Origin: an uncultured Planctomycetota bacterium
Lineage (GTDB): Bacteria; Planctomycetota; Planctomycetia; Isosphaerales; Isosphaeraceae
Length of the DNA stretch: 64,000 nt
Reading direction: 5' to 3'
NCBI GenBank assembly: GCA_963823665.1
Contig: CAWGMQ010000004.1
Span: 1,696,001-1,760,000 of the forward strand
Positions 17,091 to 49,408 of the stretch are shown here, piece after piece. The position numbers and the translations under genes were made by a program. How positions within the stretch are numbered: the first letter of the stretch is position 1; each line of letters starts with the position of its first letter. The notes under the pieces are model-generated. The model was not told where the DNA came from, ran no database searches, and worked only from the letters and a program-made list of their open reading frames with translations.

Positions 17091-17276
17091 GTGGGCCATT
17101 GGTTCCGATAGCACACTTCAGCGACAATAACGATGCGAGAAGATGTCTGTGCGTGCTGCGGCGATTCCGCGCAATTCGAACACGAGCACGTAACTCCCAA
17201 AAGCTTCGCACGGGTTGAATGGACCTACGCCGTCCTGACGAGCGGCCAAGTCAAATTGAAGAGGAGCGGAATGAAG

Positions 17277-20437: not shown

Positions 20438-23400
20438 TCAACCTGGCATGATCCTTCGCGCGGTCGGCGAGATGGTGAACTCGGTGGAACCCGCCAGTAA
20501 TACACCGTCAGCGCTTGATACGCCAGTCGGCGGCGAGTTGATCACCGTGATTTGACCTCCCTTGGCGAACGTCTGTTTCCCCTTGATGGTCAAGGTGACG
20601 GAGTTGTTCGACGGGTTATAGGCCGCGTTGAATGCGACGCTCCTGAGTTTCTTGCCGGCCGCGGCGATCCTCGAATCCACCTTGTAATTGCCCATCGATT
20701 CGACCGACGCTGGACTCATCGCGGTGCTGAAATCGAGCACAAAGCCCTCGAGCACGGCCTTCCCGACCGGCTTGCCCTTCTTGTTCTTGTTCCGCATCGT
20801 CAGAACCTGCTCGCCGATAATCGTCGGAGTCAGAGGGACAGTCACGTTCAGAGAGTGGCGCGTGTCGGTGGAACCGAAGAAGTCGGCGGTCCCGTTGTAA
20901 ACAGCCTGGATGGTGTAGGTGCCTGGTGAAGTGCCGGCGGGCAGAGGGTAGCTGGCGCTGGCCGTGCCATTCGTGACATTGACGGTGACGGCCGAGCCGA
21001 TCAAGGTCGTGCCGCTCACGATCGTGAAAGTCTCGGTGCCCTCGTTGACCGTACCGGCTTCACTGGTCACGGTGGCGCTGAGAAGAACGGCCTGGCCGGT
21101 GGGGCTGAACAAGGCCGAAGTGCTCGCAGCGGACGTGGACGTGGCACCCGTCACGACGAGCGTCGTGCTGCCCGTGATCGTGCGGGTGACAGAGTCTGTC
21201 GCCGTGATCATGCGGTGCCCGGCCGTATTCAAGACAACCTGCGTGAAGGTGTGCGATCCGGCGTCGCCGGCGGTGAAGGTGTAGGTGGCCGGCAGGCCCG
21301 GTGATCCGGCCGTCGGTGCTGCTCGAGGTCCACCGTGCCCTCATACTGGTTGGGGCCGCTCTTGACGGCATTGTCGTACTTGTCCATCGCCGTGACGGTG
21401 ACCGCGCCCACCGTTCCGGCCGGGTCCGGGTTCGCGAAGCTGGTGGTCACCACGAAGTCGTCGGCCGCCGCCGGGTTCACCGTCTCCGTCTGGGTGGGTG
21501 AGGAACTCAGGGCGGTGTCGGCGGCGGTCAGGGTCGGCGTACCGGCCTTGGTGTCGCCGTAATAGAAGCTGGCAGTGCTCTCGCCGGCGCTGATGACGAC
21601 GCTGGTGATGGGGCTGGTGCTACTTTGGGTCGCATAGAGGACGCCGGCTGTGCTGGTCGTGCTCAGATTGATTGTCTGCGCGATGGTGGAGGTGGCGCCC
21701 GGGTTGCCATAGACGTCCTCGAGCTGCACGGTGACCTGGCCGCGGCTTCCGGCGATCAGGCTCAGCGCCGGGCTGGTAATCGTCATGTCGACGGCCGCTG
21801 CTGGGATGACGTTGACCGAGGCGTTGCCGGTAATCGTGCGGGTCATGGAGTCGGTCGCGGTGATCGTCTGACTGCCCGCCGTCTTCAGGACCACGTTGGT
21901 GAAGGTGTGCGATCCGGCGTCGGCGGGTGTGAAGGTATAGCTGGCCGGTAGGCCCGCGACCTGAATGTCGGTGCTGCTGAGGTTCACCGTGCGCTCATAC
22001 TGGTTCGGGCCACTGCCCACGACGTTGCCGTAGTGGTCCATCGCGGTTACCGTGACCGAGCCCGCGGTACCGGCGACGTCCGCGTTCGCGAAGGCGGTGG
22101 TAACCGCGAAGCCTTGAACGGTTGCCGGAACGACGTTGACCGTGGCGCTGCCGGTGATCGTGCTGGTGACGGAGTCCGTCGCAGTGATCGTCTGGCTGCC
22201 CGCCGTTTTCAGCGCGACGCCGGTGAAGGTGTGCGATCCGGCGTCAGCGGGGTGAAGGTATAGCTGGCCGGTAGGCCCGCGACGTGAATGTCGGTGCTGC
22301 TGAGGTTCACCGTGCGCTCATACTGGTTCGGGCCACTGCCCACGACGTTGCCGTAGTGGTCCATTGCGGTGACCGTGACTGTGCCCGCGGTACCGGCCAA
22401 GTCGGGGTTCGCGAAGCTGGTGGTGACCGCGAGGTCTTGAGCCGCTGCTGCGTCGACTGTCTCCCGCTGGGTCGGTGCGGAGTTGAAGGCGGTGTCGGCG
22501 GCGGTCACGGTCGGAGTGCCCGCCAGCGTGTCGCCGGAGTAGAAGGTGGCGCTGGTCTGGCCGGCAGGGATGCCGACGCTGGTGGTCGGGTCGGTGCTGC
22601 CTTGGGTTGCATAGAAGGCGCCTGCCGTGCTGGTGGTGCTCAGGCCGATCGTCTGGTAGCTGGTGGAAGTGGCTCCCGGGTTGTCGAAGGTGTCCAAGAG
22701 CTGCACGGTGATCTGCCCGCGGCCGCCCGCTGCGAGGGTCAGCGGCGCGCTGGTGATCGTCACCTGGCTGGCCACCGCCGGGCTGACGAAGATGGTCTGG
22801 GAAGTGGTCGAACTCACCCCGCTCGAGTCGGTGCTGAAACCGATATCCATGGTCTCGGCCTTGTCGTGCGACAGGCCACTGAACGTCGCCACCCCGTTGG
22901 CGAGTGTGACCGTCAGGTTGCTCCCCTGGAGACCGGCTGTGCCGGTATTGCCTGACGCCGCGGTCACTGTGTTCGTGCTGTCGCTGGTGATCACGTTGCC
23001 GTATTCGTCCTCTTCCTCGACGACCGGCTGAATCGTGAATAGCACGCCTGCGGTTGCCGCGGGCGATGGCTGCTGTGTGACAAACAACTGGCTGGCAGTC
23101 GCCGCCTCGACGGTGACCGCGGGGCTGGTGCCGGTGATCGTTTCGTTGGCCGAATCGGTGGCGGTGATCGTCTGGCTCCCCGCCGTCTCCAGGATCACGC
23201 CGGTGAATTCATGCGAACCGGCGTCGGCGGCGGTGAACTTGTAGGTGGCGGGCAAGCCAGCCACCTGGCCGTCGGTGCTGCTGAATTCCACCGCGCCCTC
23301 GTACTGGTTGGGACCGCTGCTGACGGGATTGTGGTTCGCGTCGAAAGCCATGACGGTGACCGTGGCGGCGGTACCGGCCACGTCTGGGTTCGCGAAGCTG

Positions 23401-26369
23401 GTGGTCACCACGAAGGAGGCGGCTTCCGCCGGGTCGACCTGAATGCTATTGGAGGCGACCCCTGTGAGATTGCCGCTGGAGACCTGAAGCGTGTAGCCGG
23501 TCCCGGCGGTGTCCAGGGTCAGGCCGGAGAAAGTGGCCACGCCCTCATTCGCGGTCACGGTGGCGGTGCCCCCCAGACTCGCTCCGCCGGGGCCGCCGGC
23601 CAGCGCAACTGTCACCATGCTGTTGTAGGTCGTGTCGATCTGACCCTGATCGGTCTCGGCGTCGACGACGACGACGAATCCGGCGCCGGCGGCCAGCTCG
23701 GTTGGCGGCGGAGTCGCCAGTACCAGATGCGTGGCCGGCGGCGCAATGACGTTGAAGCCGGCGGTGGTGGCCGAGCTGAGGCCGGTCGCTGCGGCGAGGA
23801 TTGTGTAATTGCTGCCAGGCTCATTCAGCGTCAAGTCGGAAAAGCTCGCGATTCCGTTCGTCGCCCCGATCTCGAGCGTGCCACCCAGGGTCGCATTGCC
23901 CGGATTGGTCGCCAGCGTCAACGTGATGGGGCCGTCGTAGGAGGTGTCGACGTCACCCCGGCCATCCTCAGCCGAGACGACGATCGTGAACGTCGTCCCT
24001 GCGTCGACATTGCTGGGCGGCTGTGGCGGCTCGGTCGTTACCACCAGGTGCGTCGCACCCAGGGTGACGTTGAAGGGCTGGGTTGTGATGGCAGTCAGGC
24101 CGCTCGCAGTCGCGGTGATCGTGACCCCTTGCGCGGCATCTTTGAGGGTGAGGCCGGAAAAGACGGCGACTCCATTGTTCACGGTGGCCGTCAATGTTCC
24201 CTTGAGCGTATCGCCGCTCGGGTTGTTGCGGAGGGCGATCGTCACCGTGCCGTTGTAGTCAATACCCGGGTTTCCCAGGCTATTCTCAACGGAGACCACG
24301 ACGCCGAAGCCCTTACCGGCGGTAACGCTGCCGAGAGGCTCCGTCGTCACACCGACCTGGGTGGGAATCGCGATTGAGGAAAGCGTGACGACTCCAATGA
24401 CGCTCGGGTCGCCGTTGATTCCGGTGGCGGTAAACCAGATATTCCCATCTGTCCCGGCAGTAATCCCCTCGGGTTGGGCGTTGGCAACTGGGTATTCGTT
24501 GATCACTCCGGACGTTGTAATCGAACCGATGAACCCAGCGGCGGGGGGATTGATGTACGAATTGGGATCATCGAACCATAGGTTGCCGTCCGGACCGACG
24601 ACGATCTTCATGGCTTCGTGACCACTCGCCAGCTCATACGAATGGATCGTGGAACCGTTCGATGGATTAATGACATCAACGTAGTAGGCGGGATGGGCCT
24701 CGGTGATCCAGATGTTGCCGTCCGGGCCAGCCGTGATGCCGTAGGGCGTACCATTGACGTTGTACTCTGTGATGTGACTGGGGTCGTTCGGGGAGAACTC
24801 GCCGATCTTGTTCGAGCTTCTCTCGGTAAACCAGATGTTCCCACTCGCATCCACTGCGATACTTCCGGGATCGGCGTTCGCCGTTGGCACATTGAACTCA
24901 GTCACAGCCTTGGTCGCCGGGTCGATCCTGCCAATCTTGTCCGCATCGAACTCGGTAAACCACAGATCGCCATCCGAAGGATCGTACACGATGCTGGCAG
25001 GCCCGGAATCAGCGGTGTTTACCGTCTGCTGGCCGATAGCCCCATTCGACGGGTTGATCCAGCCAATTGCGTCTCCATCGTCAGGCCTACCAAACTCGGC
25101 GAACCAGAGATTGCCATCCGGACCGGGTGTGATTTCCTCGGGGCCGGAGAGAGGAGTCGGTAACGTGTATTCCGTCATGATGCCGGTTGTCGGAACGAGC
25201 TCGCCCAGCTGGTTGGAAGACCACTGGGTAAACCAGAGATTCCCGTTACTGTCGGACGTGATGTGGAGCGCGGGGCCGGCCAAGGTCGTCGTGTACTGAT
25301 AAGCGATTACATTGTGCGAACCTGGTCCGATCGAATCGATCGCGCTGCCGTTCGACATCACAAACCAGAGATTGCCATCCGATCCCGACGTGATTCCAAA
25401 CGGATTCGAGCCGGTGGAGAACTCTGTCACCTGGCCCGCGGTGGTGATCGTTGCGATATTCCCTGTCGCCGACTCGGTGAACCAGAGATTGCCATCTGGT
25501 CCGAGCGTGATGGAATCAGGCTCGGCACCGGCGGTCTTGACCGCAAATTCGTGAAGGAGCGCGCCGGTCGATGGGCTCATCACCGCGATCTTGTCGGTCC
25601 CGGTCAACGTGAGCCAGAGATTGCCGTCGGGGCCGACCGTGATGCCTTCGGCCTGGTCATTGCCCGCGGCGTCGATGGGAAACTCCTTCATGACATGTGT
25701 GGTCGGGTTAATCATGCCGATCTGGTTCTTGCCCGCCTCGGTAAACCAAATATTGCCATCCGGGCCCTCGACGATCCCGTACGGTTGGGCGCCGGCGGTG
25801 ATCGCGGGAAACAGCGAGATCTGGTCGGTGGCCGTGTTGATCACGCCGATCTGGTTCGTGTTGAACTCGGTGAACCAGACCGTCCCATTCGGTCCGGCGG
25901 TGATTCCGTCGACCTGCGGGTTGGCGCTGGTCAGCAGGGGAATTTCGGTAACGTGACCGTTGGTCGGGCTGATGACGCCGAACTGGTCGGCCGTCTCCTC
26001 GAAGAACCAGTAGTTTCCGTCTGGGCCGGCCGCGATCGGGCCGGGCCCGGAATTGTCGGTGGGGATGGGGTACTGGGTGACCCCGGCGCTGGTATTGCTC
26101 GGATTGATCATCCCGATGTTGTTCGAGCTCAGCGTGAACCAGATATTCTTGTCCGTCCCGGCCCCGGACGCAACTCCTTGAGGGCTACCACCCTCCACGC
26201 TAGTCGGGAAGTCGGCGACGTTGACGGAGGAAAGGAGCCTCCGCGACTCGAGGGCTTCGAGCACCGGCGAGCGGCGTCTCCAATGCCCCGCCGACTTCCG
26301 CCAGCCGTTCCGTGAATCCTTGGCCACCACGGCCTGCGGAGCCGGTCTTGTTGCCGTGTTGCCTCTCAT
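20438..26369 (-). CDS. Large surface protein: Vgb-like beta-propeller repeats + Ig-like repeats, frameshifted
   Basis: LEALESRRLLS export motif; many GPDGNLWFTE repeats; repeated YTFTPADAGSHTF units; three consecutive ORFs. Confidence 0.85.
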
Positions 26370-26676
26370 GGTCGTTCGCCCCTCGTGCCGCTTCACAATC
26401 GTTCACATCAGCTTGGGATTTGGCCGGTCGCAGGGTCTGGGACGAACCTTCCCCACCAGAAAGCAGACGTCCGAGGCGTTCCCAACTTGCGCACGATCGC
26501 CGACTTAATCCCGGGCGCAAGTTAGCCAGTGCAGGATCGTCTTTCCTTTGGCGGCGCCGCGAAGACCGCCGAAGCGCGTCGGTGCGCCGGTTGAACAGTG
26601 CACGTTATCGGGGGACATCAGTAAGTTGAGGCTGCCCATATTCGTATGTATTACGAAGGGTATATACGCGGCCCTC

Positions 26677-26969: not shown

Positions 26970-27398
26970 TCATGACGGGTTAAACAGCACGACACCGGCG
27001 GCGGCCGCGGCAGTTTTCAGCTTGCCGTCAAGGCATGCAAGCGGCAGGCCCCGGCGGATTGCCAGCTCGAGGTACGCGGCATCGTAGGCGGAGAGCTGAT
27101 GGGCTCGGGCCAGGTGCATGATGTCGCCGAACGCTCGGCTGCTGTTTTCATGGTCGATGACGATCGGCAATTTTTGAAGCAGCACGATAAATCGCTGGCT
27201 GCGGGCTTCGTCAAGCCGTTTGCGGCGTTCACCGATGATGGTGGCGTTGGCTACTTCGAGGCACCAGAGCGAGGGCACCACGGCCGGACGTTCGGCCAGG
27301 CTATCGCGGACAGCGTCAGTGTAGGGCGTGGCTTCGTCATCGAAGCACCATGTCATCGTGACGGAGCAGTCGAGCACGAAACCGTCCTTGGTTTCCAT
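26970..27398 (-). CDS. vapC: PIN-domain toxin (VapC family)
   Basis: FVLDCSV, LEVAN, LSAYDAAYLELA, LD. Confidence 0.9.
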   Translation of the reverse strand: METKDGFVLDCSVTMTWCFDDEATPYTDAVRDSLAERPAVVPSLWCLEVANATIIGERRKRLDEARSQRFIVLLQKLPIVIDHENSSRAFGDIMHLARAHQLSAYDAAYLELAIRRGLPLACLDGKLKTAAAAAGVVLFNPS

Positions 27399-27422
27399 CA
27401 GCGAATCCTTCCGACTGCGGTT

Positions 27423-27671
27423 CTAAAAGCGGCGGCCGTCCTCGATCAGGTCGCGGACGGTGAGGCCGTCGCCCAGCGTGTTGCCCTTACTGAAGGCTTT
27501 GAGCTCTTTGATAACCTGGCGCACATCCGGCTTGGGTGTCGTGACAGAGACGGGTACAAGCCGGGCAACGGGCTTGCCGTGCTTGGTGATGGTGAATTCC
27601 TCTCCGTTTGCCACCCGCTCAAGGAGCTGGGGGAGATGCGTCTTGGCTTCAAACGATCCGACCGATTCCAT
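27423..27671 (-). CDS. Phd/YefM family antitoxin
   Basis: VGSFEAKTHLPQLLERV..ITKHGKPVARLVP; directly upstream of PIN gene. Confidence 0.92.
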   Translation of the reverse strand: MESVGSFEAKTHLPQLLERVANGEEFTITKHGKPVARLVPVSVTTPKPDVRQVIKELKAFSKGNTLGDGLTVRDLIEDGRRF

Positions 27672-27742
27672 GAGCCATCTCCTACACCATTTCAACTAGT
27701 TGTAACCAGTCTACGAGAATTTACCCAATTTGACAACCGGAA

Positions 27743-28179
27743 GCTCAGTCGCTGTTTATCTGTCTGGAATGCCGGTTAAAGCATCCTCGAGGATCTGGGC
27801 GGCGATCTGCATGGGGCTTACCTTGCGTCCGCTGGTGCTGCTCTGCTCGGCCAGGCGGATAAGGCGTTGTCTGGTGGCGTCGCTCATGGGCACCTTGGGA
27901 TGCCGCCGTACCCAGCTTGGGTCGGTTGGCCTGCCTGGGCGGATACCTTGTCCAGGCTCGAGGCGGGCTTGAATGGTTCTTATCCGGCTGTTATTTCCAT
28001 GTGCCCCTGCGTCCGGGGACGGGGCCTTGGACAGCTTGATCTGCACGTCATAGCCCAGGCGGATAATGAAGCGGAGCAGCCTGTCGGTCGAGAATCCATC
28101 GAGGTGGCCTCTGAGCAATTCGGAAACCTTGGGCTGGCGGATGCCGACCAGTTTGGCAGTTTCGGCCTGCGTCAAACGC
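27743..28179 (-). repeat. Scaffold repeat A copy 3 (5'-truncated, frameshifted XRE gene)
   Basis: TQAETAKLVGIRQPKVSELLRG; 1-nt insertion relative to copy 4. Confidence 0.85.
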
Positions 28180-28253: not shown

Positions 28254-28284
28254 TTGACAGCGCAGGCTTGTGCTAATTTAGCAC
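28254..28284 (+). promoter_or_regulatory. Putative promoter/operator of the DUF559 operon
   Basis: TTGACA 28254-28259; TGC-TAATTT extended -10-like inside perfect palindrome GTGCTAA-T-TTAGCAC; -35/-10 spacing is only 14 bp. Confidence 0.45.
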
Positions 28285-28288
28285 CACC

Positions 28289-29494
28289 ATGAACTCTTCC
28301 GTAATCTCTCCGGTGCGCGGTGATCGCGCGGCAATCCTTGGTCGTCATGCCGTCCGCAGGAATACCGGCGTTCCTACGGTCTCGCTGCTCGTCGGACCGA
28401 TCGGGGCTGGCCTAAACGCATGGCGTCGCTGGGCAGCCGCCAGGGGACAAAGTGCAGTCGTCGCAAGCGGGAACGCGTTTCCGATTGCCGAATGGGTTCG
28501 CTCCGCCGCCGAAGAGACCGATCTGCCGGCCGCGGCGGTCCATTGCCTGGCCCGGCGATCCGAGCGTGATCCGAATGAGCTTTTTGCTGCGTGGCGGGCC
28601 AAGACCCCGTCGGATCGTGAAGGATTCTCGGATGGCCTCGCACCAAAATCGGACGATGATTTGCTTCAAGTCGTGGCGGGTTTGGCAGTCGGCCGAGCGT
28701 CACCCAGTACCGTTGCGGCTTCGCTCGGTGATCTGGGGGAACGGGTCGTACGCGTGATTGCTCACCTGGATCCCTCAACCAACTGGCCAGGTGTTCTGTT
28801 CCTCGCTCGCTCGGCGAACGACTTCTTGGCTGTCGGACGCGAAGCCGTGAAATGGGCCATGCAACTGCCAACCTTGTCAGTTGCAGTTGCAGTGCCGGCA
28901 GCGACTTGGGACGAATACCTCGCAGCCGCGCCGGAGTCGCGCACCAAAGCGCTCCTGAAAGAAGGTGAGCTCGCGGTTCCCGTAATTGATGCGGGGACTG
29001 CGGAGCAGATTTTGACCGAAGCCGGGGCGGCAAAGAGCGCGGTGGCGATGATCGCCGCGAATGACGCTGATCCAGCCCTACTGGAATCGGCTGTCGCCGC
29101 CGTTCGGGCCACCGCTGCCCCGCCGCCAACCAGAGCGGACGGCGACCGCGCCCGCAGCGCCGCCGAACGATTCCTCTACGCGTTCCTGGAATCGCTCCCT
29201 GAAACTGCGGGACGTTTCGAGCTGAATGCTGCCCTCGACTTCGAGTTCGGTCCCCGACCGGCAGAAGTCGACCTCCTGTGCCGCGCACCACGGATTGCTA
29301 TCGAGCTGGACGGCTACTTTCACTTCCTCGCGCCCGACGGCTACCGCCGCGATCGCTTGAAGGATTGGGAGCTGCAGCGACGCGGCTTCGTCGTATTGCG
29401 TTTCCTGGCCGAAGATGTCATTCCGCAGTTGGAGATGATCCGCGACCGCATCCTGGCGGCGCTTAACGTCACCTCATTCGGAGCACGCCCGTGA
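28289..29494 (+). CDS. DUF559/Vsr-like endonuclease domain protein with long N-terminal region
   Basis: RSAAE..EVDLL..IAIELDGYFH..YRRDRLKDWELQRRGFVVLRF. Confidence 0.88.
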   Translation: MNSSVISPVRGDRAAILGRHAVRRNTGVPTVSLLVGPIGAGLNAWRRWAAARGQSAVVASGNAFPIAEWVRSAAEETDLPAAAVHCLARRSERDPNELFAAWRAKTPSDREGFSDGLAPKSDDDLLQVVAGLAVGRASPSTVAASLGDLGERVVRVIAHLDPSTNWPGVLFLARSANDFLAVGREAVKWAMQLPTLSVAVAVPAATWDEYLAAAPESRTKALLKEGELAVPVIDAGTAEQILTEAGAAKSAVAMIAANDADPALLESAVAAVRATAAPPPTRADGDRARSAAERFLYAFLESLPETAGRFELNAALDFEFGPRPAEVDLLCRAPRIAIELDGYFHFLAPDGYRRDRLKDWELQRRGFVVLRFLAEDVIPQLEMIRDRILAALNVTSFGARP

Positions 29495-30516
29495 CCTCGA
29501 CTCTCACCACTCCGCCCGCCACCGATACCGCTACTGCCGATCTCGTTTTGGTTCGAATGACCCTGCCGTGCACGAAGCCAGTTGCTCCGTCGGCTGTTCG
29601 AAGAGATGTCGGCAAGCTACTCGATTCGGAGCTTTCCACCGCCGACTTCGACGAATTGCGGAACGAGCTGGCTTCCGCCGGCTTCCTCGAAAAAGGGAAA
29701 CGGAACACGTTCGTCCTCACCGACTCGGGCCGCGCGCGGGCATTGCGCTTCCTTGGTGTCGCCGAGCTCTCCGCACGCACAAACTGGTCAACGGTTATCG
29801 CCAAGCACCTGTTCCCCAAAGCCGCCGAGCTCTCGAGCAGCGTGGCGGAAGAGTTGAATAATGGCGACAAGCTGGCCGCCTTCGTGCTCAAGCGGAAGTA
29901 CGGGCTCTCCGGAGGTGCCGGCTCGACCGTGAACCAAGTCCTCGAGGCCGTGGTCTGCAAGCAGCTCGGCTTCACCCAAGAAACGACACTCGACGGCCTG
30001 TTGCGCGGGGTTTTGAATCAGCTCATCGGAACCGAAAACCTGCCGAAGGACCAGCTCGTCAAGCAGCTACCGCTCTTCGAGACAGGGCTCAAGTCGACCA
30101 AAGCCGATACGGTGCGGTGCAAGGTGGTCAGGGACTGGCTCCGCGGCCAGCGGAAACCGCCGCAACCACGGGAGCAATTTGAAGCGGGCCGCCTCGAGCA
30201 TGAGCCGTTTGACCTATCAACGTTTGCCGCGACGGTACGGAAGCTGGCGGCCGATAGCCTGCCAGAGGATCGGTTCCACGACAACAAAGTGTTCATCGCT
30301 TCCCTGTGGCGGACAAGCCAGCGCGAGCCGAGTTTCCCGCGCGTTTCGCTCGCTGAGTTCAAACAGCGGCTGGTGGAGGCAAACTCTCAGAGTCTTCTCC
30401 GCTTGAGCCGAGCCGACCTCGTTCAGGCAATGGACCCGCAGTTGGTGGCCGATTCCGAGGCGGTGTATCTAAACGCGGCGTTCCACTTCGTACTCCTGGA
30501 AGGTGACCATCGATGA
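29491..30516 (+). CDS. Hypothetical protein, probable winged-helix domains
   Basis: 341-aa ORF overlapping both neighbours (GTGA, ATGA); LASAGFLEK..FVLTDSGRARA wing-like motif. Confidence 0.8.
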   Translation: MTSTLTTPPATDTATADLVLVRMTLPCTKPVAPSAVRRDVGKLLDSELSTADFDELRNELASAGFLEKGKRNTFVLTDSGRARALRFLGVAELSARTNWSTVIAKHLFPKAAELSSSVAEELNNGDKLAAFVLKRKYGLSGGAGSTVNQVLEAVVCKQLGFTQETTLDGLLRGVLNQLIGTENLPKDQLVKQLPLFETGLKSTKADTVRCKVVRDWLRGQRKPPQPREQFEAGRLEHEPFDLSTFAATVRKLAADSLPEDRFHDNKVFIASLWRTSQREPSFPRVSLAEFKQRLVEANSQSLLRLSRADLVQAMDPQLVADSEAVYLNAAFHFVLLEGDHR

Positions 30517-33500
30517 GCACCGCCGTAGACTCCCTCGAAACTCGCGCCGCTGCAGACCCGCGTCTGGCCGCGTTCCTGGAGCCCGACTGCCCGGAGGTGT
30601 TCCACTCGGTCGCCACGCCGAGCGCCATCTGGAAGCCCGACCCTTTTGATGTAGAGACGATTCACCCCGAGGCCCGCGCGGCGTTCGAGTACCTATTGAA
30701 TCGCGCGGGCCGCACCCCTCCGCCACCCTCTGGCGCGGTCCTGGTTTTGCTCGGCGAGGCCGGCAGCGGCAAGACGCACTTGATGCGGGCATTCCGAACC
30801 CGCGCCCATGGATGTGACCTGGGCTACTGCGGCTACCTCCAGATGACCGCCGAGGCGGGCAACTACGCTCGGTACATGCTGACAAACCTGATCGACGGCC
30901 TCGAGCAGCCTTACGACGCCACCGGCCCGTCGCGCACCGGGCTCGCCCGGTTGTCGGCTGCCCTCCTTGAGTCAGTGCCGGGCCTATCCGGAATGGAAAT
31001 GGAGGCATTCCGCGAAAGTGAAAGCGGCGACGATCCCGCGGGTCTTGCGGACGATTACGCTGACCGCCTGCAAACGGCCCCACGCTTCCGAGACTGTGGT
31101 CTCGAGCTGCTCCGGGTGCTGTTGCACCTGCAGCGCAACGAGCCGAGAGTGCGCAGCCGGGCTCTCATGTGGCTACGGTGCGAGAACATGCGCTCCCAGG
31201 ATCGCGAATGGATCGGCGAGGCAGTGCCGCGCACGGACGATGCCGACCCGATGAAAATGCTACAGCAGCTCGCCAAGCTGACAGACGCCGTACACGGCGT
31301 CCCGCTCGTTCTTCTCATTGACCAGTTGGAAGACATGGCCAACCAGTCGGCTCCGGTCGATCGGTTCCTCAAGGTGATCGACGCAATCACCGCGTTCACT
31401 GACGCTGTTCCCAATACGATCATCGTGCTGGCGTGTCTCGAGGATTACTTCAGGGCGAACATCGAAAAACTCAACAAAGCCAAGCAAGATCGCTTGCTCC
31501 GCGACCCCGACCCGATTCGCCTGCTCGGCAACCGCACCTCCGACGAGATCCGCGAAATGACCGCACGGCGGCTTGCTCACCTCTACGACACTGCGGACGT
31601 CCTTGTCGACCCGGCGAACGAGCTATACCCGTTCCGCGATGACCACCTCGCCAGGCTGAACAACCTGCGGGCCCGTGATGCACTCGATTTCCTGAGGCGG
31701 CACCATCAGCACTGCCTCACCATCGGCCGATGGGAGGATCCGGGGGGAACGATCAGCACATCGGAGGCCTCGCCGGAAAATGAACTTGACCCGCTCTGGA
31801 ACGACTTTCACTCCAGTTTCCAGGCAACCGTCCCCGACGGCGAAGAAGACCTGTCCCAGATTCTGGCCGACGCGATCCGCGGAGCGTCAGCCGAGCTGCC
31901 CGACGGCTATCAATTCAGTTCCGAGCGCGACGGGCGTTATCTCGAAGTCGAGACTCACCGGCCCAGCAACGAGGTGGACAAGCTGCTCGTCGCCGTTTGC
32001 AATGCCGGCACTCGCGGCCCCAATTTCGTCAAGCAGCTCGCAGAGTTGGAGAAACGTGCCGGCGAAATTCCCGTCGCCATCGTGCGCACGACCGACTTCC
32101 CGAAAACCGGAAAGGCGACGAATCAGATTGCCGTGATGCTCAAGCGGCACGGGCGAACGGTGGTCGTCGTCGACACCGACTGGCGAAGAATGCTCGCCTT
32201 CGGGAGGTTTCGTGCGAGCCACGCGAGCAGGACCGACTTCGCCGCCTGGCAGAACACCGCCCGCCCGCTGGGTGAGCTTGACTCGCTCCGAAAGATTCTC
32301 AATTTCAGCGCGCTAGCTGCAATGCCGGCACGCGCGGCCGCTTCTCAACCACCGGCCGCTCCGCCAGTGCGAGTTGTTCCCGTTTCGGCGACCTCGGAGG
32401 ATTCGATCACTCCCAGCGCTCCGCGCGGGTCCGATCGTTCTCGGCCGCACGAACAGCGTGACGCCGTCCCCCGTCACCTTCGAGCCGAACGAGTTCGTCC
32501 AGCACGCGGCATTCCTAGGTGGGTCGGGCAGCGGCAAGACGACGGCGGCGCTGAACCTGATCGAGCAATTGCTCGCGCGCGACGTTCCGGCCGTGCTGCT
32601 CGATCGGAAGGGGGATCTGTGCCGGTACGCCGATCCAAAGGCTTGGGATCGTCCGCTTGGCGACGCGGCATGTACCGGCGCGCGTCAGGCATTACGGAAC
32701 AGGCTCGACGTGGCACTCTTCACTCCGGGCGAGCCGGCAGGCAGGCCGCTTGCCCTGCCTATCGTGCCGCCCGGCTTCGCCGATCTTCCCGAAGCCGACC
32801 GGGAGCGGTTTGCTCAGTACGCCGCAGGCGCGCTGGGCAGCATGATCGGTTTCAAGTCGTCCGACGCAGACAAGGGACAGCGGGCGATTCTGGCGAAGGC
32901 CATCGAGACGATCGCGGCGGTGGCCGGCGCGGCGATCACGTTGCCGGTCTTGAGAGCTGCGATCGAGAATCAGGATGGAGCGCTCTTGAACGCCATCGGC
33001 GGCGGCTACCCTGGCAAGTATTACGCCAACCTCGCCCAGCGCTTGCTGACGCTCGAGCTGAATAACAAGCTACTGCTGAACGCCGATGAGGGGCTGGACG
33101 TGGACGCCCTTCTGGCGCGGGCCGTTACGCTCAGCCAGGCCGCGTGCGGCTGTCGGTGATCAGCACCCGATTCCTCGGCGATGCGGCCAAGGTCGACTTC
33201 TGGGTATCGCAACTGCTTGTGGCGGTCTCGCGCTGGTGCGCAAGTCACCTCAGGCGCGGCTCCAGGCGGTATTCATGTTCGACGAGGCAGACGTGTACCT
33301 GCCCGCGGGCACCAAGCAGCCTGCCACCAAGGCGCCAATGGAGGACTTGCTCAAGCGGGCTCGGTCGGCCGGCGTCGGCGTGTTCCTGGCGACGCAGAGT
33401 CCGGGCGATTTCGACTACAAGTGCAAGGAGAACGTGCGAACCTGGCTGATCGGGCGGGTGAAGGAGCAGCGGGCGATCGACAAGCTGAAGCCGATGCTGG

Positions 33501-33667
33501 CCGCGGCCAAGATAAACGTAGCCGACAAGCTCGCCGGGCAGGCGACAGGTGAGTTCTATCTCGTGCGCGAGTCCTGCGTGACGGCAGTGCGGTCCGACGA
33601 GTCATTCATGCGCACCGAGCAACTACCAGAGAACGAGATTGCTTTGCTTGCGCGCCGATTGGCTTGA
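30513..33667 (+). CDS. Double P-loop ATPase: N-terminal AAA-like + C-terminal HerA/FtsK (DUF87/DUF853-like), about three frameshifts
   Basis: GEAGSGKT/LLIDQLE, then GGSGSGKT, LLDRKGD, FMFDEAD, RARSAG, LATQSP. Confidence 0.85.
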
Positions 33668-33739: not shown

Positions 33740-34156
33740 CTACCGCCAGTTGATTATGGTGAGGGGATAGCCGAGCTGCTGGACTCGTTGGAAATGGGCG
33801 GTGTTGCCGGTGACCAGCTCCAGGCCGTGCTGGAGAGCAATAGCGGCGATCATGGGGTCGGCAACGCCGATCGGGCGGCCGGTGCGTTCAAGCTCCCCGG
33901 CGATACGGCCCGCCAGCTCGGCGGCGGAATGGTCGAAGGGGAGAATTTCCTCGAGGGCGACAGCGGCAAGGAAGGCTTGCAGGCGGCGGGCGGACTGGTT
34001 TTTCTGGAAGCCCCGGACAATCTCCATGACGGTGACGGAGGACAGGGTGAGGATGCCTTGGCTCTGACGGTAGGTGGTGGCGTTCTGGGTGACGGTCGGA
34101 TTTGACGCCTTGAGTACCTCCGAATAGATGTCGGTGTCGAGAAGGGCCTTACTCAA
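33740..34156 (-). CDS. vapC: PIN-domain toxin (VapC family)
   Basis: ALLDTDI, VMEI, DPMIAAIAL, LVTGNTAHF; TTG start. Confidence 0.9.
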   Translation of the reverse strand: MSKALLDTDIYSEVLKASNPTVTQNATTYRQSQGILTLSSVTVMEIVRGFQKNQSARRLQAFLAAVALEEILPFDHSAAELAGRIAGELERTGRPIGVADPMIAAIALQHGLELVTGNTAHFQRVQQLGYPLTIINWR

Positions 34157-34403
34157 CGGAGATGTCCCGCCAGCCGTCTTCAAGGCGGTGCTTCATGGCA
34201 TCGGCAACAACCTCGTCGAGCTCATCGGCGGCGTCGGCCATGGCACCAATGGAACCCAGGCCCTTGTCAGCCGGGCGGGCAGGGGGCTGATGCAGGAAGT
34301 CCCGCACGGCCTGTGCGACCAGGGCGTCGGCCGAAGGAAAAAGGCCGCTATGCACCTGGGCACGGACGGCAAGTTCCAAATCATCTGGTAAGTTGATCGT
34401 CAT
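34149..34403 (-). CDS. Putative RHH antitoxin
   Basis: MTINLPDDLE..VHSGLFPSADALVAQAVR (ParD-like); overlaps PIN start. Confidence 0.75.
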   Translation of the reverse strand: MTINLPDDLELAVRAQVHSGLFPSADALVAQAVRDFLHQPPARPADKGLGSIGAMADAADELDEVVADAMKHRLEDGWRDISVE

Positions 34404-34753
34404 ATTAGCTTGCCTCCGAGATGTCAGCTTAGCATAATCGAGCCGGTTTGCCAATGGGCGGATAGGCTGGTGTCAAACGACAAATCGCCGATTCGTCGCG
34501 TGGGACGATCGACGGCGGGGCTCAGTCGCTGTTTATTGGTCTGGAATGCCGGTTAAAGCATCCTCGAGGATTTGGGGGGCGATCTGCATGGGGCTTACCT
34601 TGCGTCCGCTGGTGCTGCTCTGCTCGGCCAGGCGGATAAGCCGTTGTCTGGTGGCGTCGCTCATGGGCACCTTGGGATGCCGTACCCAGTTTGCGTCGGT
34701 TGGCCTGCCTGGGCGGATACCTTGTCCAGGCTCAAGGCCGGCTTGAATGGTTC

Positions 34754-35080
34754 TTATCCGGCTGTTATTTCCATGTGCCCCTGCGTCCGGGCACTGGCCT
34801 TGGACAGCTTGATCTGCACGTCATAGCCCAAGCGGGTGATGAAGCGGATCAGCCTGTCGGTCGAAAATCCATCGAAGCGGCCTCTGAGCAATTCGGAAAC
34901 CTTGGGCTGGCGGATGCCGAGCAGTTTGGCAGCTTGGGCCTGGGTAAGACGCCGTCGCTGGACAATCCCCAGAATCTCAGCGGCAAGCTGGGATTTAGCC
35001 ATATATTCGTCGGCGTTTTCAATCCCTAGGTCGGCAAATACATTGCCGCTGCTGTCGTGGACGATGTTGTCAGCGGTCAT
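34754..35080 (-). CDS. XRE/HTH_37 (HigA-like) antitoxin/regulator
   Basis: SSGNVFADLG..LTQAQAAKLLGIRQPKVSELLRG..FSTDRL. Confidence 0.9.
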   Translation of the reverse strand: MTADNIVHDSSGNVFADLGIENADEYMAKSQLAAEILGIVQRRRLTQAQAAKLLGIRQPKVSELLRGRFDGFSTDRLIRFITRLGYDVQIKLSKASARTQGHMEITAG

Positions 35081-35150
35081 GGTTTTCTGGCCTTCTGCTG
35101 GTTCTTGTGATGCTCGACGGCTGCGCTCAGGCGTTTCTCGATCAAGTCGA
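35077..35150 (-). pseudogene. 3' remnant of Gp49/HigB-like RelE toxin
   Basis: LDLIEKRLSAAVEHHKNQQKARKP* with ATGA overlap onto the XRE gene. Confidence 0.5.
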
Positions 35151-36324
35151 GGCGGCTGTGGGATCACGTGGATCGAATCGCTTCGGGTGATTGCTTAGGC
35201 GTCGGGTATCGAGTGGAGAGGATCCGGAGGCCGAGCGGAATGGGCGGTTCCAAAGACAACCGTTGATATTCAGTATTTCCCCTTTTTCGTTGGTGAGCAC
35301 AATTGATTATAGAGTGTAGAAGTGCAAACATATTAATTGCAACATGTAATGGGGTACCACGCTCCGGTCCTAGGTGAGGGACGGGCTTATGTGGCGATCA
35401 CCGCTCGGCGGGGCCGATAAAACGAAAATGGGGAAGCGTTGGCTGAAAGCCTAAGCTCCCCCATTTTAGTCCGCGTTCAACCAAAATGGCTGACGGCGGA
35501 AAAGAGTGGGTCTTGCGTGTGAGACAACGCAAAACACCTAAAGGTACGCCCCTGGGAAAAGGGCGGCCTTTTTCGTTTGGGATTTGGCGCAGTTGCAACT
35601 ACGGCTTAGTAATCCCTGACACTCAACGTATAGGTCACGTTTTCCACCTTGTCAAATCTCTCCCCAAAAAACTGTCGATGTAGTCTCATTCAATAACATA
35701 ACATCTTACCGAATAAGGTTTTATTAATAATCACCGCGGTCCTCCTCGTCTCGCTCTTTCACCCGGCGATTTCAAAATTATTAGGTACGCATAACGGCCA
35801 GAAGCACATTGTAGATACACCAGCTACTTGACATTTCGCTCGCATGAGCAAGAGAAATCGCAGTATCGCATGCAATGCGATTGCAAGGCCTGACGAGTGA
35901 GACCGAAGGGCCTGGCAGCGGCATAAAACGGGTTTACCATGAGTACGCCCCTGGGAACCAAGCCATGTCAGAGGTTTCAGACCGCCCTCCGGGGCGAGAC
36001 GTTCGCCTTGCGCGCACCGTAGACCAGCCACCCGGGTTTGGCCGAAATCGCCCGGTGGGCGGCACCCTCATTAGCAAATTAATCAACTTCGTGTTGGCGA
36101 GTTGGACAATCACTTCCCACGGGCATCATTTGCCCCCGCCAGGTGGCGGGTCGGCATCGGTCGAACCCGAGGCCAGCCGAAAGGGAAGAAATACGATTAT
36201 CTGCCTAGGAATCATTCTGGCATTTCTTGCGGCTCTTTTGATAAGTGGCTCCTTACGGCTGGGTGTTACCGTAGAGGTCGGCAATCAGGGTAAGGCCGTG
36301 CCAGGTGTAAACGGAAAGTAAACG

Positions 36325-37182
36325 ATGACTCTTCGTCGGCTTGATCGCCGTGACGTCGATTTCTCGACTCCTTTGCAGATTTATCTGCACGATATTAATG
36401 ACACGCCATTGCTGTCGGCGCAGGAGGAACGCGCGCTTGCCGAGCGCGTGGCGGTGGGTGATCCCATTGCCCGCGAACACATGGTTAGAGCCAACTTGCG
36501 CCTCGTCGTCAATATCGCACGCGGCTATCTGGGCAAAGGTTTGAACTTGGAGGACCTTATCGAAGAAGGGAATTTGGGGTTGATGCGTGCTGTCGAAGGG
36601 TTCGATGGCATGATGGGGACTCGATTCAGGACCTACGCGATTTACTGGATCAAGCAGTCAATTCGCCGGGCGGTGATGAACACGGGGAAGCCGATCCGCC
36701 TGCCGGCGTACATGGTCAGCCTCCTTTCCAAGTGGCGGCGAGCCACGGGGGTGCTCACCGATCGACTCGGCCGGGCTCCCACGCATGACGAGGTCGGGAA
36801 AGCCCTGCGACTCTCCAAGAAGAAAATGGGAATTGTGGCCAAGGCAATCCGTGTCAACAACCTCACGCCCCACTCGGAAATCCTGGATGAGGACGGTCCC
36901 GCGCTCGACCGCGTCTTGACCGACGATCGCAGCAACAAGGGCCCTGAATCGAAGATGATCGAGGCCGACGACCTCGACCGCATCTTCCTGCACTTGGATG
37001 CCCTCGAGAGTCGTGAAGCCGCGGTCATTCGCATGCGGTTCGGCTTGGACTCTTACGAGCCGATGACCCTGCGCGAGGTCGGCGAGAACTTGGGCCTGAC
37101 TCGTGAAAGAGCTCGGCAGTTGGAGAGCCAAGCGTTGCAAAAGCTCATGAGCGCGCTGGCCGAAACGGGCGGGCGCATCTGA
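36325..37182 (+). CDS. Sigma-70 family RNA polymerase sigma factor (regions 1.2-4)
   Basis: YLHDINDTPLLS, ANLRLVV, DLIEEGNLGLMRAVEGFD, WIKQSI, TLREVGENLGLTRER. Confidence 0.95.
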   Translation: MTLRRLDRRDVDFSTPLQIYLHDINDTPLLSAQEERALAERVAVGDPIAREHMVRANLRLVVNIARGYLGKGLNLEDLIEEGNLGLMRAVEGFDGMMGTRFRTYAIYWIKQSIRRAVMNTGKPIRLPAYMVSLLSKWRRATGVLTDRLGRAPTHDEVGKALRLSKKKMGIVAKAIRVNNLTPHSEILDEDGPALDRVLTDDRSNKGPESKMIEADDLDRIFLHLDALESREAAVIRMRFGLDSYEPMTLREVGENLGLTRERARQLESQALQKLMSALAETGGRI

Positions 37183-37301: not shown

Positions 37302-37802
37302 ATGGCAGACGACGAGTTATCTGAGCTGGCTGATTCGATACGTGATTCCTACGCGCGGCGTAGAGCCAAACATGATCGCCGCCGCCGCATCGACCCTACA
37401 ACCTTTGATAGAGAGTACACTGCCGAAGAGATGGAATTCATGCGGGCGATGCAGGCTTATAAACAAAGCAGCGGGCGCATGTTCCCAACCTGGTCGGAGG
37501 TGTTGAAGGTCTTGCGGAGCCTGGGTTATGAAAAGGTAGATCGTAGAGATGCTGACGGTGAAAGCGTCGTAGAATTTGTGCAGGCGATGCAGGCTTATAA
37601 ACAAAGCAGCGGGCGCATGTTCCCAACTTGGTCGGAGGTGTTGGAAGTCTTGCAAAATCTTGGTTATCAGAGAGCAGGCGGAGAAGCGCATAAGGATACG
37701 CAGTCCGCACGTAGCGCGTTAACGACAGCTACGAGCGAACCACATGCTGCACCGCGCACTGTCAACCGGGGTAATGTGATCGCTGAAGCGATTGGTACCT
37801 GA
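37302..37802 (+). CDS. Hypothetical protein with tandemly duplicated [18 protein letters not shown] domain
   Basis: [10 protein letters not shown]..; 138-bp-period internal repeat (37434 vs 37572). Confidence 0.75.
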
Positions 37803-38013: not shown

Positions 38014-38377
38014 CAGCGACAATGGCGATGCGAGAAGATGTCTGTGCGTACCGCGGCGATTACAGGCAAGCCGAACAAGAGCACGTAATTCCCCAGAGGT
38101 TCGCACGGGTTTGAACGGACGTACGCCGTCCTGATGATCAGCCAAGTCAAATTGAAGAGGAGTGGAATCGAGATGGCACGCAGCGTTTCGACGCATCTCA
38201 TGTTCGAGGGAGTTGCCGAGGAGGCGATGAAGTTTTATGTCTCGCTCTTTCGACGGTCAGAGATCGTCAAGGTTGAGCGATACGGACCTGGCGAGCATGG
38301 GGCGGAGGGATCCGTCAAGGTCGCGACCTTTACTCTCTGTGGGCGAGAGTTCATGTGCATCGACAGCCCGATCAAGC
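38014..38377 (+). pseudogene. Scaffold repeat B copy 2: upstream region + 3'-truncated VOC/PhnB gene
   Basis: Aligns with 17119-17480; homology stops after CIDSPIK. Confidence 0.85.
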
Positions 38378-38409: not shown

Positions 38410-39291
38410 TTAACTTGGAATGGATAGCGTCGAAACAAAAGCGAGCAGCTCGGCCCATGCGTGATCGAATTCGATGAACTCGGTCGTAGTCTTCCGAATC
38501 TGCGCATCGTAAGTCGACGACGCCTTCTGTCTCACCTTCTCATCAAAGGCCGACTTCGTCGCGACAATTTCCCGAGCGGCGGACTTCTGCAGAAGGAAAG
38601 ATGAAACCTTGCCGAGGTCAATCAACGCCGAGTGCTTGCGAACCATTGAGGCAATATCGAAAACGTCTTGAGGGCGTGAACGATTCCGGGGAATCTGCTG
38701 AAGGAGAGCCCGAAGCTTTTCCGCGAGAATATCCTCGAGGGTGCAGACCCGAAGTGGAATCGATTCAGGACCGAGCTGCTCATCCCCGGTTTCGCACAGC
38801 ACGTCATTCAGGCTGATTTCGACTTCGACCACTTCAGAGAGCGTCTTTCCGGCTGAAAGCCGCTCGTCGATGTTTTGGAAGTATCTGTCGCCGGGGAGCT
38901 GATAGCAGACCTTGAGGTTGTAGGTTGGCCTGGTCTTATCGACACCAGGCGGATTTCGACGAATGCTCTGACACCGAGCCTTGACCTGATATCGCCGTTC
39001 TTCTGTCTTCAACGCAGTATCCATAAGCCCCTTGATAACTTCTGCACTGTCTGGGAAATCCTCGACGGCGCTGAAATCGAGGTCGAGCGTGCTCCGCATG
39101 TTGCCGTGAATGAAGCGAAGGGCGTTTCCGCCCTTAAACGCGACGCGAGAAACGAACGCAGCCGATGAGGACATCGACACCAGAATCACGAACTGGACGA
39201 AGCGACGCCTCGCTTCCTCCGCGGTCGTGCCATGCAGCTTTCGCCAAGCATCGAGCTCGGCAATTGAGGTTGGATAGCTTCCTGCTTCCAA
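38410..39291 (-). CDS. abiEii: AbiEii/AbiGii nucleotidyltransferase toxin
   Basis: FKGGNAL..RSTLDLDF, LAEKLRALL, RPQDVFD. Confidence 0.9.
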   Translation of the reverse strand: MEAGSYPTSIAELDAWRKLHGTTAEEARRRFVQFVILVSMSSSAAFVSRVAFKGGNALRFIHGNMRSTLDLDFSAVEDFPDSAEVIKGLMDTALKTEERRYQVKARCQSIRRNPPGVDKTRPTYNLKVCYQLPGDRYFQNIDERLSAGKTLSEVVEVEISLNDVLCETGDEQLGPESIPLRVCTLEDILAEKLRALLQQIPRNRSRPQDVFDIASMVRKHSALIDLGKVSSFLLQKSAAREIVATKSAFDEKVRQKASSTYDAQIRKTTTEFIEFDHAWAELLAFVSTLSIPS

Positions 39292-39298
39292 GCGGCCT

Positions 39299-40198
39299 CT
39301 AATTCTCTTCCAAGATGGCCAAAACGGACTGCGGAACGTTTAGCGAAAGATTCCACTCCGCCGAGAACGTCGTCGCATACGGGTTACGTGCGACCAACTT
39401 TACCGACCCTCCGCGTTGCAGTCCATGCCGCCATTTGGCGAGCAGAGGATGAGTCTTCCCTAACTTTTCAAGGAGAAAGCCCACCCGCTGTCGGAGCACC
39501 TTGTGTCCATAATCGTCTGCGTAGGAGACGAGCTTGGCGACGTCGACGTTTTCGGCTGACCGCCACGCTTGAAGCACCTTCTCAATGCCGCCCGACTTTT
39601 CAGGCATCCGAATCGCGTCAAGTAACGTTCGTTCGACGTCGGTGACATAAATCGGAATGCCGAAACTGTAACCGACGATAACGCCGAAGCCAGGCTCCGA
39701 CGAAAGCTGTGTCCAGATTACCCGGACACCTCGCACCGTCAGGGGACGCTTCGCCGTGAGAAGCGAGCTCGCTTCAGACCAGTCTTCTGGTGTCGTGCCA
39801 AGCGGTAACCGGTCGGCGTTTTCTGCTCGTTCGCTCGCAATCGGGTAGACCTCTGTCGGAACGAGGTCTGTGATGCCGTGGTAAGCCATCGCGGTAAGGA
39901 AGCCGAAGACCGCCCAAGGATTTGCTTCCTGAATGATTTGCTCTTCGGAGACCTCAAGCAAATTCGCGTAGGCTACGTTCACCACATAAACGCCGGAAAC
40001 GCCTTCAACCGACACGACCTCTCCTCGTCGGACGAGCTCCTTGCGGATGGCCTGAGCCTTCTCTTCATCCGGCAGAGGGGAGTTTTCAGCTCTGGCTATC
40101 TGGCGAGCAATTACAAGAATTCGCCAGTCGGAAATGACTCGACGTCGAGTCTCTGCAAGCACTCGGAGGATGTTGGACGCAAATGTCTTAGGGCCCAT
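39299..40198 (-). CDS. abiEi: AbiEi-type antitoxin/transcriptional regulator
   Basis: TAMAYHG, VTDVERTLLD, QRVGFLLE, WNL; upstream of AbiEii. Confidence 0.85.
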   Translation of the reverse strand: MGPKTFASNILRVLAETRRRVISDWRILVIARQIARAENSPLPDEEKAQAIRKELVRRGEVVSVEGVSGVYVVNVAYANLLEVSEEQIIQEANPWAVFGFLTAMAYHGITDLVPTEVYPIASERAENADRLPLGTTPEDWSEASSLLTAKRPLTVRGVRVIWTQLSSEPGFGVIVGYSFGIPIYVTDVERTLLDAIRMPEKSGGIEKVLQAWRSAENVDVAKLVSYADDYGHKVLRQRVGFLLEKLGKTHPLLAKWRHGLQRGGSVKLVARNPYATTFSAEWNLSLNVPQSVLAILEEN

Positions 40199-41432: not shown

Positions 41433-42668
41433 TTAGGAAGTATCAAATGCCACCGCCTCGGGTGTGGGACCGCAGTGAGGTCCTTCACTCGGGTCGGCCG
41501 GAAGCTCCCCGAGAATCGCGACGATGAACATATAGCCCTTGCCGCAAGCAGGGCAGACGTGCATCGCGTGTTCTCCTTCGGCAGCGACCTGCTCTTCTGG
41601 AGCCGGCTCAGGCGCCCCCGGTTCCAAGGAGGGCTCGGTCTCCTCGAGTAGCTCGCGACACAGTTCGAGATTCTCCCGGCACACCCGGTTAGCGAGGAAG
41701 CCATAATGCCGGATTCGGACGAATCCGGCGGGTAACACATGCAGGAGGAATCGGCGGATGAATTCGATCGCTTTGAGCGCCATCGTCTTCTGCTTTCCCT
41801 CGTGCGCGTAATCCTTCCAGTGGAACGTAACCTTGCCGTCCTCAACCGTGATCAGCCGGTGATTGCTGATCGCGACCCGGTGGGAGTACCGGGCCAGGTA
41901 TTTCAGCACCTGTTCCGGGCCACCAAAGGGAGGCTTGGCGTAGACAACCCATTCGGTCTTGGCACTGGCAGTGAGCCGGCGCTGAAACTCGGCCGGGTCG
42001 GCCAACGAAGCGAGCGTGCCGTGCAAGGAAAGCTTGCCCTGATCGAAGGCGAACTTAAGCAGAGCGAGAAACTTCCCCCGAAAGAGGCGGCTGAGGACAC
42101 GGACCGGTAGAAAGAAGCCGGGTTTGCAAGGGACCCATCGCGCGCGATCAGGCGACAGCCCGCCACCCGGCACAACGCAGTGGACGTGCGGGTGATGTTG
42201 CAGGTTCTGGCCCCAAGTGTGGAGGACGGCCAAGAAGCCGATCTCAGCCCCGAGGTGCTTCGGGTCGGCGGCGATCTGCTGCAAGGTCTCGGCGGCGCAT
42301 TTGAACAGGAGACCGTAGACCACCCGCTGATTCTGCAAGGCAATCGGGTCGAGCGCCGCCGGAAGCGTAAATACGACGTGATGATATTCGACCGGCAGCA
42401 ATTCCGCTTGCCGGGCCTCCATCCACTCCGCGGCGGCGGTTGCCTGGCACTTCGGACAGTGCCGATTGCGGCATGAGTTGTAGGCGATCTGCTGATGGCC
42501 GCATTGATCACATTCCTCGATGTGTCCGCCTAGGGCAGCAGTCCGACAAGCTGCGATGTCGCGCAGAGCGCGACGCTGCTCGGACGAGAGCGTGTCGCCA
42601 TATCGGTCGAGAAAAGCATCACCATAGTCGCGAACGACCTCGGCCACTTCGAGCCGAGGTCGGTTCAT
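41433..42668 (-). CDS. IS91-family (HUH/Y2) transposase
   Basis: CRTAALGG, YNSCRNRHCPKC, HVVFTLP, LHTWG..HPHVHC, YLARY. Confidence 0.95.
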   Translation of the reverse strand: MNRPRLEVAEVVRDYGDAFLDRYGDTLSSEQRRALRDIAACRTAALGGHIEECDQCGHQQIAYNSCRNRHCPKCQATAAAEWMEARQAELLPVEYHHVVFTLPAALDPIALQNQRVVYGLLFKCAAETLQQIAADPKHLGAEIGFLAVLHTWGQNLQHHPHVHCVVPGGGLSPDRARWVPCKPGFFLPVRVLSRLFRGKFLALLKFAFDQGKLSLHGTLASLADPAEFQRRLTASAKTEWVVYAKPPFGGPEQVLKYLARYSHRVAISNHRLITVEDGKVTFHWKDYAHEGKQKTMALKAIEFIRRFLLHVLPAGFVRIRHYGFLANRVCRENLELCRELLEETEPSLEPGAPEPAPEEQVAAEGEHAMHVCPACGKGYMFIVAILGELPADPSEGPHCGPTPEAVAFDTS

Positions 42669-49406: not shown

Positions 49407-49408
49407 CG

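Follow-up and report, generated by a model that had tools for sequence, protein, structure and literature searches.

A widespread planctomycete and myxobacterial operon joining a nuclease, a winged-helix protein and an Orc/Cdc6-like ATPase with a HerA-type pump: a candidate variant of the predicted HerA/FtsK capture systems

Here we characterize a three-gene operon lying in a 64,000-nucleotide stretch of DNA (the window; positions 1,696,001 to 1,760,000 of contig CAWGMQ010000004.1, assembly GCA_963823665.1) from an uncultured planctomycete of the family Isosphaeraceae, whose 16.5 Mb genome (12 contigs) holds a single copy of it. The operon is real and widespread in planctomycetes and myxobacteria, and we favor, with moderate confidence, the reading that it encodes a constitutive anti-invader machine that captures and cuts DNA and that varies on the Orc/CDC6-coupled HerA/FtsK capture systems already known from prediction. 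It comprises three coupled open reading frames (ORFs) on the plus strand, A (28289-29494, 401 aa), B (29491-30516, 341 aa) and C (30513-33667), joined by a GTGA overlap at the A/B junction and an ATGA overlap at B/C, as an initial annotation of the window had described them.

The C-terminal part of gene A (29132-29470) encodes a DUF559/Vsr-like nuclease. The DUF559 domain named by the initial annotation was recovered above cut-off at residues 327-392 (E 2.2e-8), the motifs S-x-x-E, E-x-D and E-x-D-G are invariant, and the C-terminal end is Vsr-like. The N-terminal part (28319-28993) gave no match in an Atlas search. When the first 230 residues were compared with the AAA+ profile of gene C, they aligned over 188 columns with a score of 36.6 (probability 43.7, E 2.4e-4), while 40 block shuffles scored no higher than 20.3 and the reversed sequence 17.1; a shallower pair of alignments gave a probability of 12 only. 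The Walker A and B positions fall in register in this alignment, with the GKT and the acidic residue absent from A. These profile comparisons, which amount to moderate evidence, suggest that the N-terminal domain of A is probably a catalytically dead AAA+ domain, paralogous to that of gene C.

Gene B combines an N-terminal winged helix, a helical middle and a C-terminal part (30202-30495). In a structure model with a predicted local distance difference test score (pLDDT) of 91.5, the N-terminal domain matches winged helix-turn-helix (wHTH) proteins at Z 10.4, while the final 100 residues show a winged-helix-like topology by secondary-structure order only, and probably form a second winged helix in the model. 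As a whole, B matched nothing in the libraries searched, Pfam, PADLOC and NCBIfam included, and neither DndG nor SspB was among the structural matches listed. Separately, the C-terminal domain of B occurs alone or doubled in Polyangiaceae (L162:7330-9093, L165:7862-8647, L037:8675-10375, L158-L161 and L166 in our locus numbering), with four copies in one genome; in two such cases a DnaB-like helicase gene is found within 5 kb, in one an integrase is nearby, and it is possible that these lone domains act as decoys or replication partners on mobile elements.

Gene C consists, at the Pfam level, of an AAA_16-like part and a DUF87/HerA_C-like part, and both sets of ATPase motifs that had been reported for it were found (Walker A motifs GEAGSGKT and GGSGSGKT, together with FDEAD, RARSAG and ATQSP). 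A structure model built on an intact relative (L003; pLDDT 89.2) shows an AAA+ domain at residues 15-405 and an alpha/beta domain at 420-600. A flexible linker, modelled at low confidence (601-635), leads on to the HerA domain (640-1049), which has a helical insert at 759-855. In the window the domains correspond to an Orc1/Cdc6-like AAA+ ATPase domain in intact frame with its complete set of catalytic motifs (30513-31733), the alpha/beta domain (31782-32315), and a HerA/FtsK translocase with its insert (32431-33667) that is spread over three frames in the assembly. The closest structures to the AAA+ part were Cdc6 (7jgr_G, Z 15.3), ORC2 (1w5s, 14.7) and Orc1, with TnsC (14.4), BrxC (13.6) and MuB (13.5) behind, and its Walker A and B motifs, arginine finger and sensor II are invariant or nearly so in 81/90 sequences that could be classed. 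The HerA part matched DndH-C best (7es4; Z 29.4, root-mean-square deviation 3.4, 329 residues aligned), in a tie with HerA (4d2i) and VirB4, and also resembles TrwB; its ATQ sensor and RxRS finger are conserved among relatives.

The middle domain of C returned no match in sequence and library searches. In the model its elements run helix, three strands, helix, strand, helix, strand, a restriction-nuclease-like topology, with V-C-N at the (D/E)xK position and no conserved catalytic residues, and we regard it as a putative inactive restriction endonuclease-like (iREase-like) domain. It is followed in the model by short helices, the linker and HerA, with no winged helix at that place, and B may supply this element in trans. 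Forms of C that lack the pump terminate after the middle domain.

This arrangement, which the initial annotation had held to match no named system, finds its counterpart in PMC10853773 (Rakesh, Aravind, Krishnan 2024), the accessible part of which predicts Orc/CDC6-coupled "HerA/FtsK capture systems" on mobile neighbourhoods. The parts listed there are an Orc/CDC6 ATPase, an inactive restriction endonuclease (REase), an active REase, HerA/FtsK (in one version with a four-helix insert) and a wHTH; some neighbourhoods add a gene with two to four wHTH domains, and the active REase belongs to two named families. As a prediction only, these authors propose that the ATPase localises the complex and that HerA intercepts the invader's DNA. 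As far as that text goes, our operon shares the active Orc/CDC6 ATPase (Cdc6, ORC2 and Orc1 at Z 14-15, motifs conserved), the DndH-related HerA/FtsK with a helical insert and the lack of a methylase. The putative iREase-like domain following the ATPase, the separate gene B with one wHTH and probably a second, and the conserved DUF559/Vsr-like nuclease may correspond to the inactive REase, the multi-wHTH gene and the active REase-fold nuclease. The operon differs in having that nuclease fused to a probably dead AAA+ copy, which the text does not describe, and in a gene C with no winged helix following the iREase-like domain. It also differs in its mostly vertical inheritance at fixed addresses and in the frequent lack of nuclease or pump, whereas the predicted systems are described as mobile. 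The operon thus probably belongs to the Orc/CDC6-HerA capture class, and we file it as a variant because the C model lacks that winged helix and three further features of the class have only candidate counterparts here.

Other systems resemble it in part. Like DndFGH, it has a HerA domain closest to DndH-C and a probable multi-wHTH partner resembling DndG; unlike DndFGH, it has no N-terminal helicase, target recognition domain or inactive methylase modules of DndH and no DndF kinase, and PADLOC scored DndH at no more than 14 bits, with no DndF or DndG match for A or B. The BREX core BrxA-BrxB-BrxC and BRC, as far as their description was available, likewise combine a wHTH protein, a nuclease-tied inactive AAA+ domain and an active Orc/Cdc6-like ATPase. 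The operon differs from them in having no PglZ, PglX, TGT or GNAT; the BrxD profile reached just 19-25 bits, and PglZ was absent among the scanned neighbour clusters (211/211 of a first locus set; 85/288 of a second, comprising all 47 recurrent ones). The main text of bioRxiv 2025.10.09.681413, in the part accessible, presents nuclease-tied inactive AAA+ domains as a recurring theme and makes no mention there of DUF559, Vsr, planctomycetes or myxococci. In DUF4297-HerA, Sir2-HerA and NurA-HerA, too, a HerA pump works with an effector or nuclease, and Foldseek matched the HerA part at E 1e-8 to 1e-13. What sets our operon apart is that its HerA follows an AAA+ and an iREase-like domain in one protein, and the NCBIfam antiphage HerA models gave scores of about 17 bits where the cut-offs are 800-850. 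PADLOC-DB 2.0 and NCBIfam hold no model of the operon and give weak generic HerA matches only, and no description of this particular family was found in the literature searched. The earlier proposal of a nuclease-translocase complex directed against invaders remains the reading we favor, while the novelty claimed for its architecture does not hold.

The domains, the conservation of their catalytic motifs, the order of the genes and their co-occurrence were observed directly; binding, pumping, cutting and defence we infer as follows. B would attach to DNA through its winged helices and load C, whose AAA+ domains would oligomerise on the DNA by analogy with Orc1/Cdc6, TnsC and BrxC. The dead AAA+ copy of A would dock onto this oligomer, as has been proposed for BrxB in BREX, and so place the nuclease, past which the HerA ring would move double-stranded DNA. 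Since no methylase is linked to the operon, recognition of the target probably depends on its state (ends, or intermediates of replication, transfer or packaging) rather than on the absence of a mark.

The frame of the window's gene C changes three times relative to intact relatives (in the linker at ~32310-32410, at 33114 and at 33242), which bears out the frameshifts suspected initially; intact homologous operons do exist, with more than 100 relatives of C of ~1050 aa intact among those listed and intact relatives measuring 1050-1108 aa, in agreement with the ~1050 aa estimated for the mended gene. Counting named records that span all of C, breaks were found in 15/22 records with CAV/CAW accessions, at scattered places, versus 3/64 other records, and this pattern suggests that the breaks in the window are probably assembly errors and its operon copy probably intact. 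At two of the three a single base is missing, in each case adjacent to a short run, gene C has no in-frame stop made by substitution, the ratio of nonsynonymous to synonymous substitution rates (dN/dS) of the HerA part against the closest relative is 0.17, and a second window gene, near 10.4-10.9 kb, is broken too. A truly broken C in this one copy, with its pump half decaying as in the lineages that lost HerA, is doubtful though well short of negligible: all three breaks lie within the linker and HerA half while A, B and the AAA part are unbroken, and most of the window genes shared with a genome of the same genus (G429) are unbroken as well. In three public soil runs no more than 0.10 of the words were present and none of the pieces listed spans a break, and no RNA run containing the sequence was among those listed.

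Relatives of gene B number 1508 at the 50%-cluster level. The gene was found in 65/121 genomes of the window's family, with 14 of 14 in one genus, in 59/151 genomes of the Myxococcus xanthus family (all but one of them at least 8.5 Mb in size), in 20/151 of the Gemmata family and in 17/121 of the Sorangium family; phylum-wide scans, which score only 5-8 candidates per genome and may undercount, were positive in 7/401 and 5/251 genomes. Of 120 distinct loci, 102 were informative, the other 18 being truncated or missing a core gene: 68 carry A, B and C, which upholds the three-gene synteny across genomes, 4 have a partial A, 17 lack A and 13 lack both A and HerA. The 13 pump-less loci all come from the set picked by gene B, the other set having been chosen by HerA motifs. 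Gene A without HerA was found at none of the 102 loci; parts are lost in order, the nuclease first and then the pump, with HerA lost at no fewer than three places in a tree of 90 AAA-iREase sequences (quick method). One pump-less locus (L038) is decayed, and AAA motifs are intact in 8/8 reduced copies. The gene lying 3' of pump-less copies at five loci was considered as a replacement effector and rejected, its product being hydrolase-like, and gene A was not found elsewhere in three Sorangium/Minicystis genomes. A distant sister subfamily follows the same plan of three genes, with a DUF559 fusion, a ~215-aa winged-helix-like protein and an AAA-iREase-HerA protein. It is present in two g327 genomes and also in Sorangium, where no A was detected (sister-system loci L141:6746-11761, L142:6278-11174 and L143:7012-11209); the main copy of these genomes has lost its nuclease or pump.

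Among cultured hosts, M. xanthus DK1622 carries the operon intact as MXAN_1591-1593 (by cluster look-up, C is MXAN_1591 and A is MXAN_1593), which the main texts of the literature searched leave unnamed. In the accessible supplementary data of PMC6791715, all three genes are transcribed during growth at about 60-200 reads per kilobase per million mapped reads, and the B and C transcripts drop two- to three-fold in development; transcripts of MXAN_1591-1593 are also counted in the supplement of PMC12754779, as far as accessible. The data available from PMC12288472 include the MXAN_1593 protein, with log2 changes upon mitomycin of -0.19 and +1.6, both unflagged, compared with +2.8 and +3.4 for RecA2; MXAN_1593 carries a flag for a decrease in the lexA mutant and for an increase in one of the ddiA comparisons. 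We consequently dropped a role in SOS-type repair as unsupported, MXAN_1593 not being significantly raised by mitomycin, unlike RecA2, in this single proteomics row. The label "TonB-dependent receptor" that several records and one published table give to MXAN_1591 is a misannotation. In the window, a promoter-like site (TTGACA ... TGCTAATTT; 28254-28279, plus strand) precedes gene A and is similar in the close relatives L045 and L003; a sigma-70 scan did not report it. A palindrome before gene A (TGCTAA-N-TTAGCA) was dropped as an operator, being unconserved in 102 other upstream regions.

The copy in the window is, judging by sequence comparison, a lateral gain into a toxin-antitoxin-rich island. 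It and its closest relative nest within Gemmataceae-type copies, an exception in the tree, in which named Isosphaeraceae records interleave with the window-family copies; the sodC site of the window's genome holds no operon; and G429 shares both flanks around a 13-kb island with Phd-VapC, AbiE, HTH_37 and repeat cassettes from which the operon is absent. Residence in a defence island applies to this copy and not to the family.

Several findings weigh against a dedicated defence machine. The family is mostly vertical, single-copy and located at fixed housekeeping addresses: the operon diverges from sodC in 32/53 loci, in a second set of 79 loci it lies before pabB-type genes (12), beside gshB (8) or after ycaO-tfuA (4), and the tree tracks host families. 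At 23/53 loci a gene generously labelled as defence or mobile is present within 5 kb, a raw count not scaled to a genome background, and no whole-length copy was found in the plasmids, phages and viral contigs searched. The nuclease is missing from 30/102 loci, 13 of them also pump-less, with AAA motifs retained, and the reduced core of B and the AAA domain remains under purifying selection, if somewhat relaxed (AAA-domain dN/dS 0.12-0.29 over five related, non-independent pairs of reduced copies versus 0.05-0.18 for full copies). The literature searched contains no defence test of this family.

These addresses, together with the host-congruent tree, the high occupancy (65/121 genomes of the window's family, every genome of one genus, and 59/151 of the M. 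xanthus family, mostly large), the ordered loss with continued selection on the core, and the steady transcription that falls in development, would also suit a domesticated machine for handling chromosomal DNA, in which B and the Orc/Cdc6-like ATPase mark or remodel chromosomal sites, with pump and nuclease as optional add-ons processing the cell's own or taken-up DNA. We nonetheless consider this unlikely, though not far-fetched. The whole operon was not found in 56/121 genomes of the window's family, 131/151 of the Gemmataceae family and 104/121 of the Polyangiaceae family searched, so that it is dispensable; lateral moves into defence islands occur as well; the mitomycin response of the sole protein detected was not significant; and selection on the reduced core is somewhat relaxed, with a sister system in two g327 genomes that could provide nuclease and pump in trans. 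It is quite unlikely, too, that B and the Orc/Cdc6-like protein form a chromosome-resident loader of DNA sites resembling eukaryotic ORC and serving a function of its own, with the pump and the nuclease on its dead AAA+ subunit as optional plug-ins and with prophage-like elements carrying the C-terminal domain of B alone as a decoy against it. A very improbable alternative is the remnant or helper of a mobile element, in which a TnsC/MuB-like ATPase and a coupling-protein-like pump persist selfishly and the nuclease serves addiction or transfer. The likeness of the AAA part to TnsC and MuB and of the pump to TrwB/VirB4, the lone C-terminal domains of B that in Polyangiaceae accompany second DnaB helicase genes and an integrase, and the direct repeats flanking the window's copy fit this idea; yet no transposase, relaxase or recombinase recurs beside the operon in the neighbour clusters scanned, the repeats are furniture of the island, present in G429 without the operon, and the operon has long resided at fixed sites.

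A capture-and-cut machine would matter since no bench test of the predicted capture systems appears in the literature searched, and M. xanthus DK1622 offers a genetically tractable host with phages, in which interception of invader DNA by a pump without a modification mark becomes directly testable. The natural deletion series (full; without nuclease; without nuclease and pump) raises the question of what function an Orc/Cdc6-like ATPase has in bacteria when its only partner is a winged-helix protein, and a housekeeping role stays in play given the fixed addresses and the conservation of a core without nuclease.

The island around the window's copy spans ~38 kb (~15578-53260), versus 13 kb in G429, with the same cassettes shuffled. 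On the minus strand, the operon is flanked by a Phd/YefM antitoxin and PIN (VapC) pair (26970-27695), also found in the operon-less G429, and by a small ORF and PIN (VapC) pair (33740-34454), both island cargo; the initial annotation had called both pairs VapBC-type. The PIN gene of the latter (33740-34183, E 2e-11) has as its partner a small upstream ORF without a Pfam match. Next to them, also on the minus strand, lie two copies of a repeat, one with an HTH_37 gene truncated at its 5' end and a short ORF (27743-28179), the other with a full HTH_37 (XRE) gene and a short ORF (34488-35167). They are 93.6% identical over 437 nt (27743-28179 vs 34520-34952), covering the 3' portion of the XRE/HTH_37 gene and the short ORF; the two "scaffold-repeat" copies noted initially are in fact among five full or partial ones on the contig. 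A second repeat family has four copies, 88-91% alike (17119-17665, 38014-38377, 46005-46341 and 47960-48396), with one further copy inside the G429 island, and together the two families may form a recombination scaffold for cassette shuffling.

The island further holds an HD-CE fragment (16414-16866), AbiEi/AbiEii (38410-40198), an IS91-like transposase with an integrase (41433-43475), another integrase (44649-45971), a YhcG/DUF1016 nuclease (46435-47565) and a GNAT toxin pair (48897-49594). Neighbours at some loci include McrBC, BsuBI, Vsr-Dcm-Eco29kI and toxin-antitoxin pairs; in two Myxococcus genomes (loci L102 and L106), the Vsr-Dcm-Eco29kI restriction-modification cassette takes the place of the usual upstream gene. 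On the minus strand of the window, 20438-26396 encodes a large planctomycete protein of secreted type, whose repeats are beta-propeller-like and Ig-like and whose gene is divided into three ORFs in the assembly, and large genes resembling it often adjoin sodC at the resident site. Finally, a sigma-70 gene (36325-37182) precedes a gene (37302-37802) for a small, internally duplicated protein (37434-37529 and 37572-37667) with no family above cut-off.

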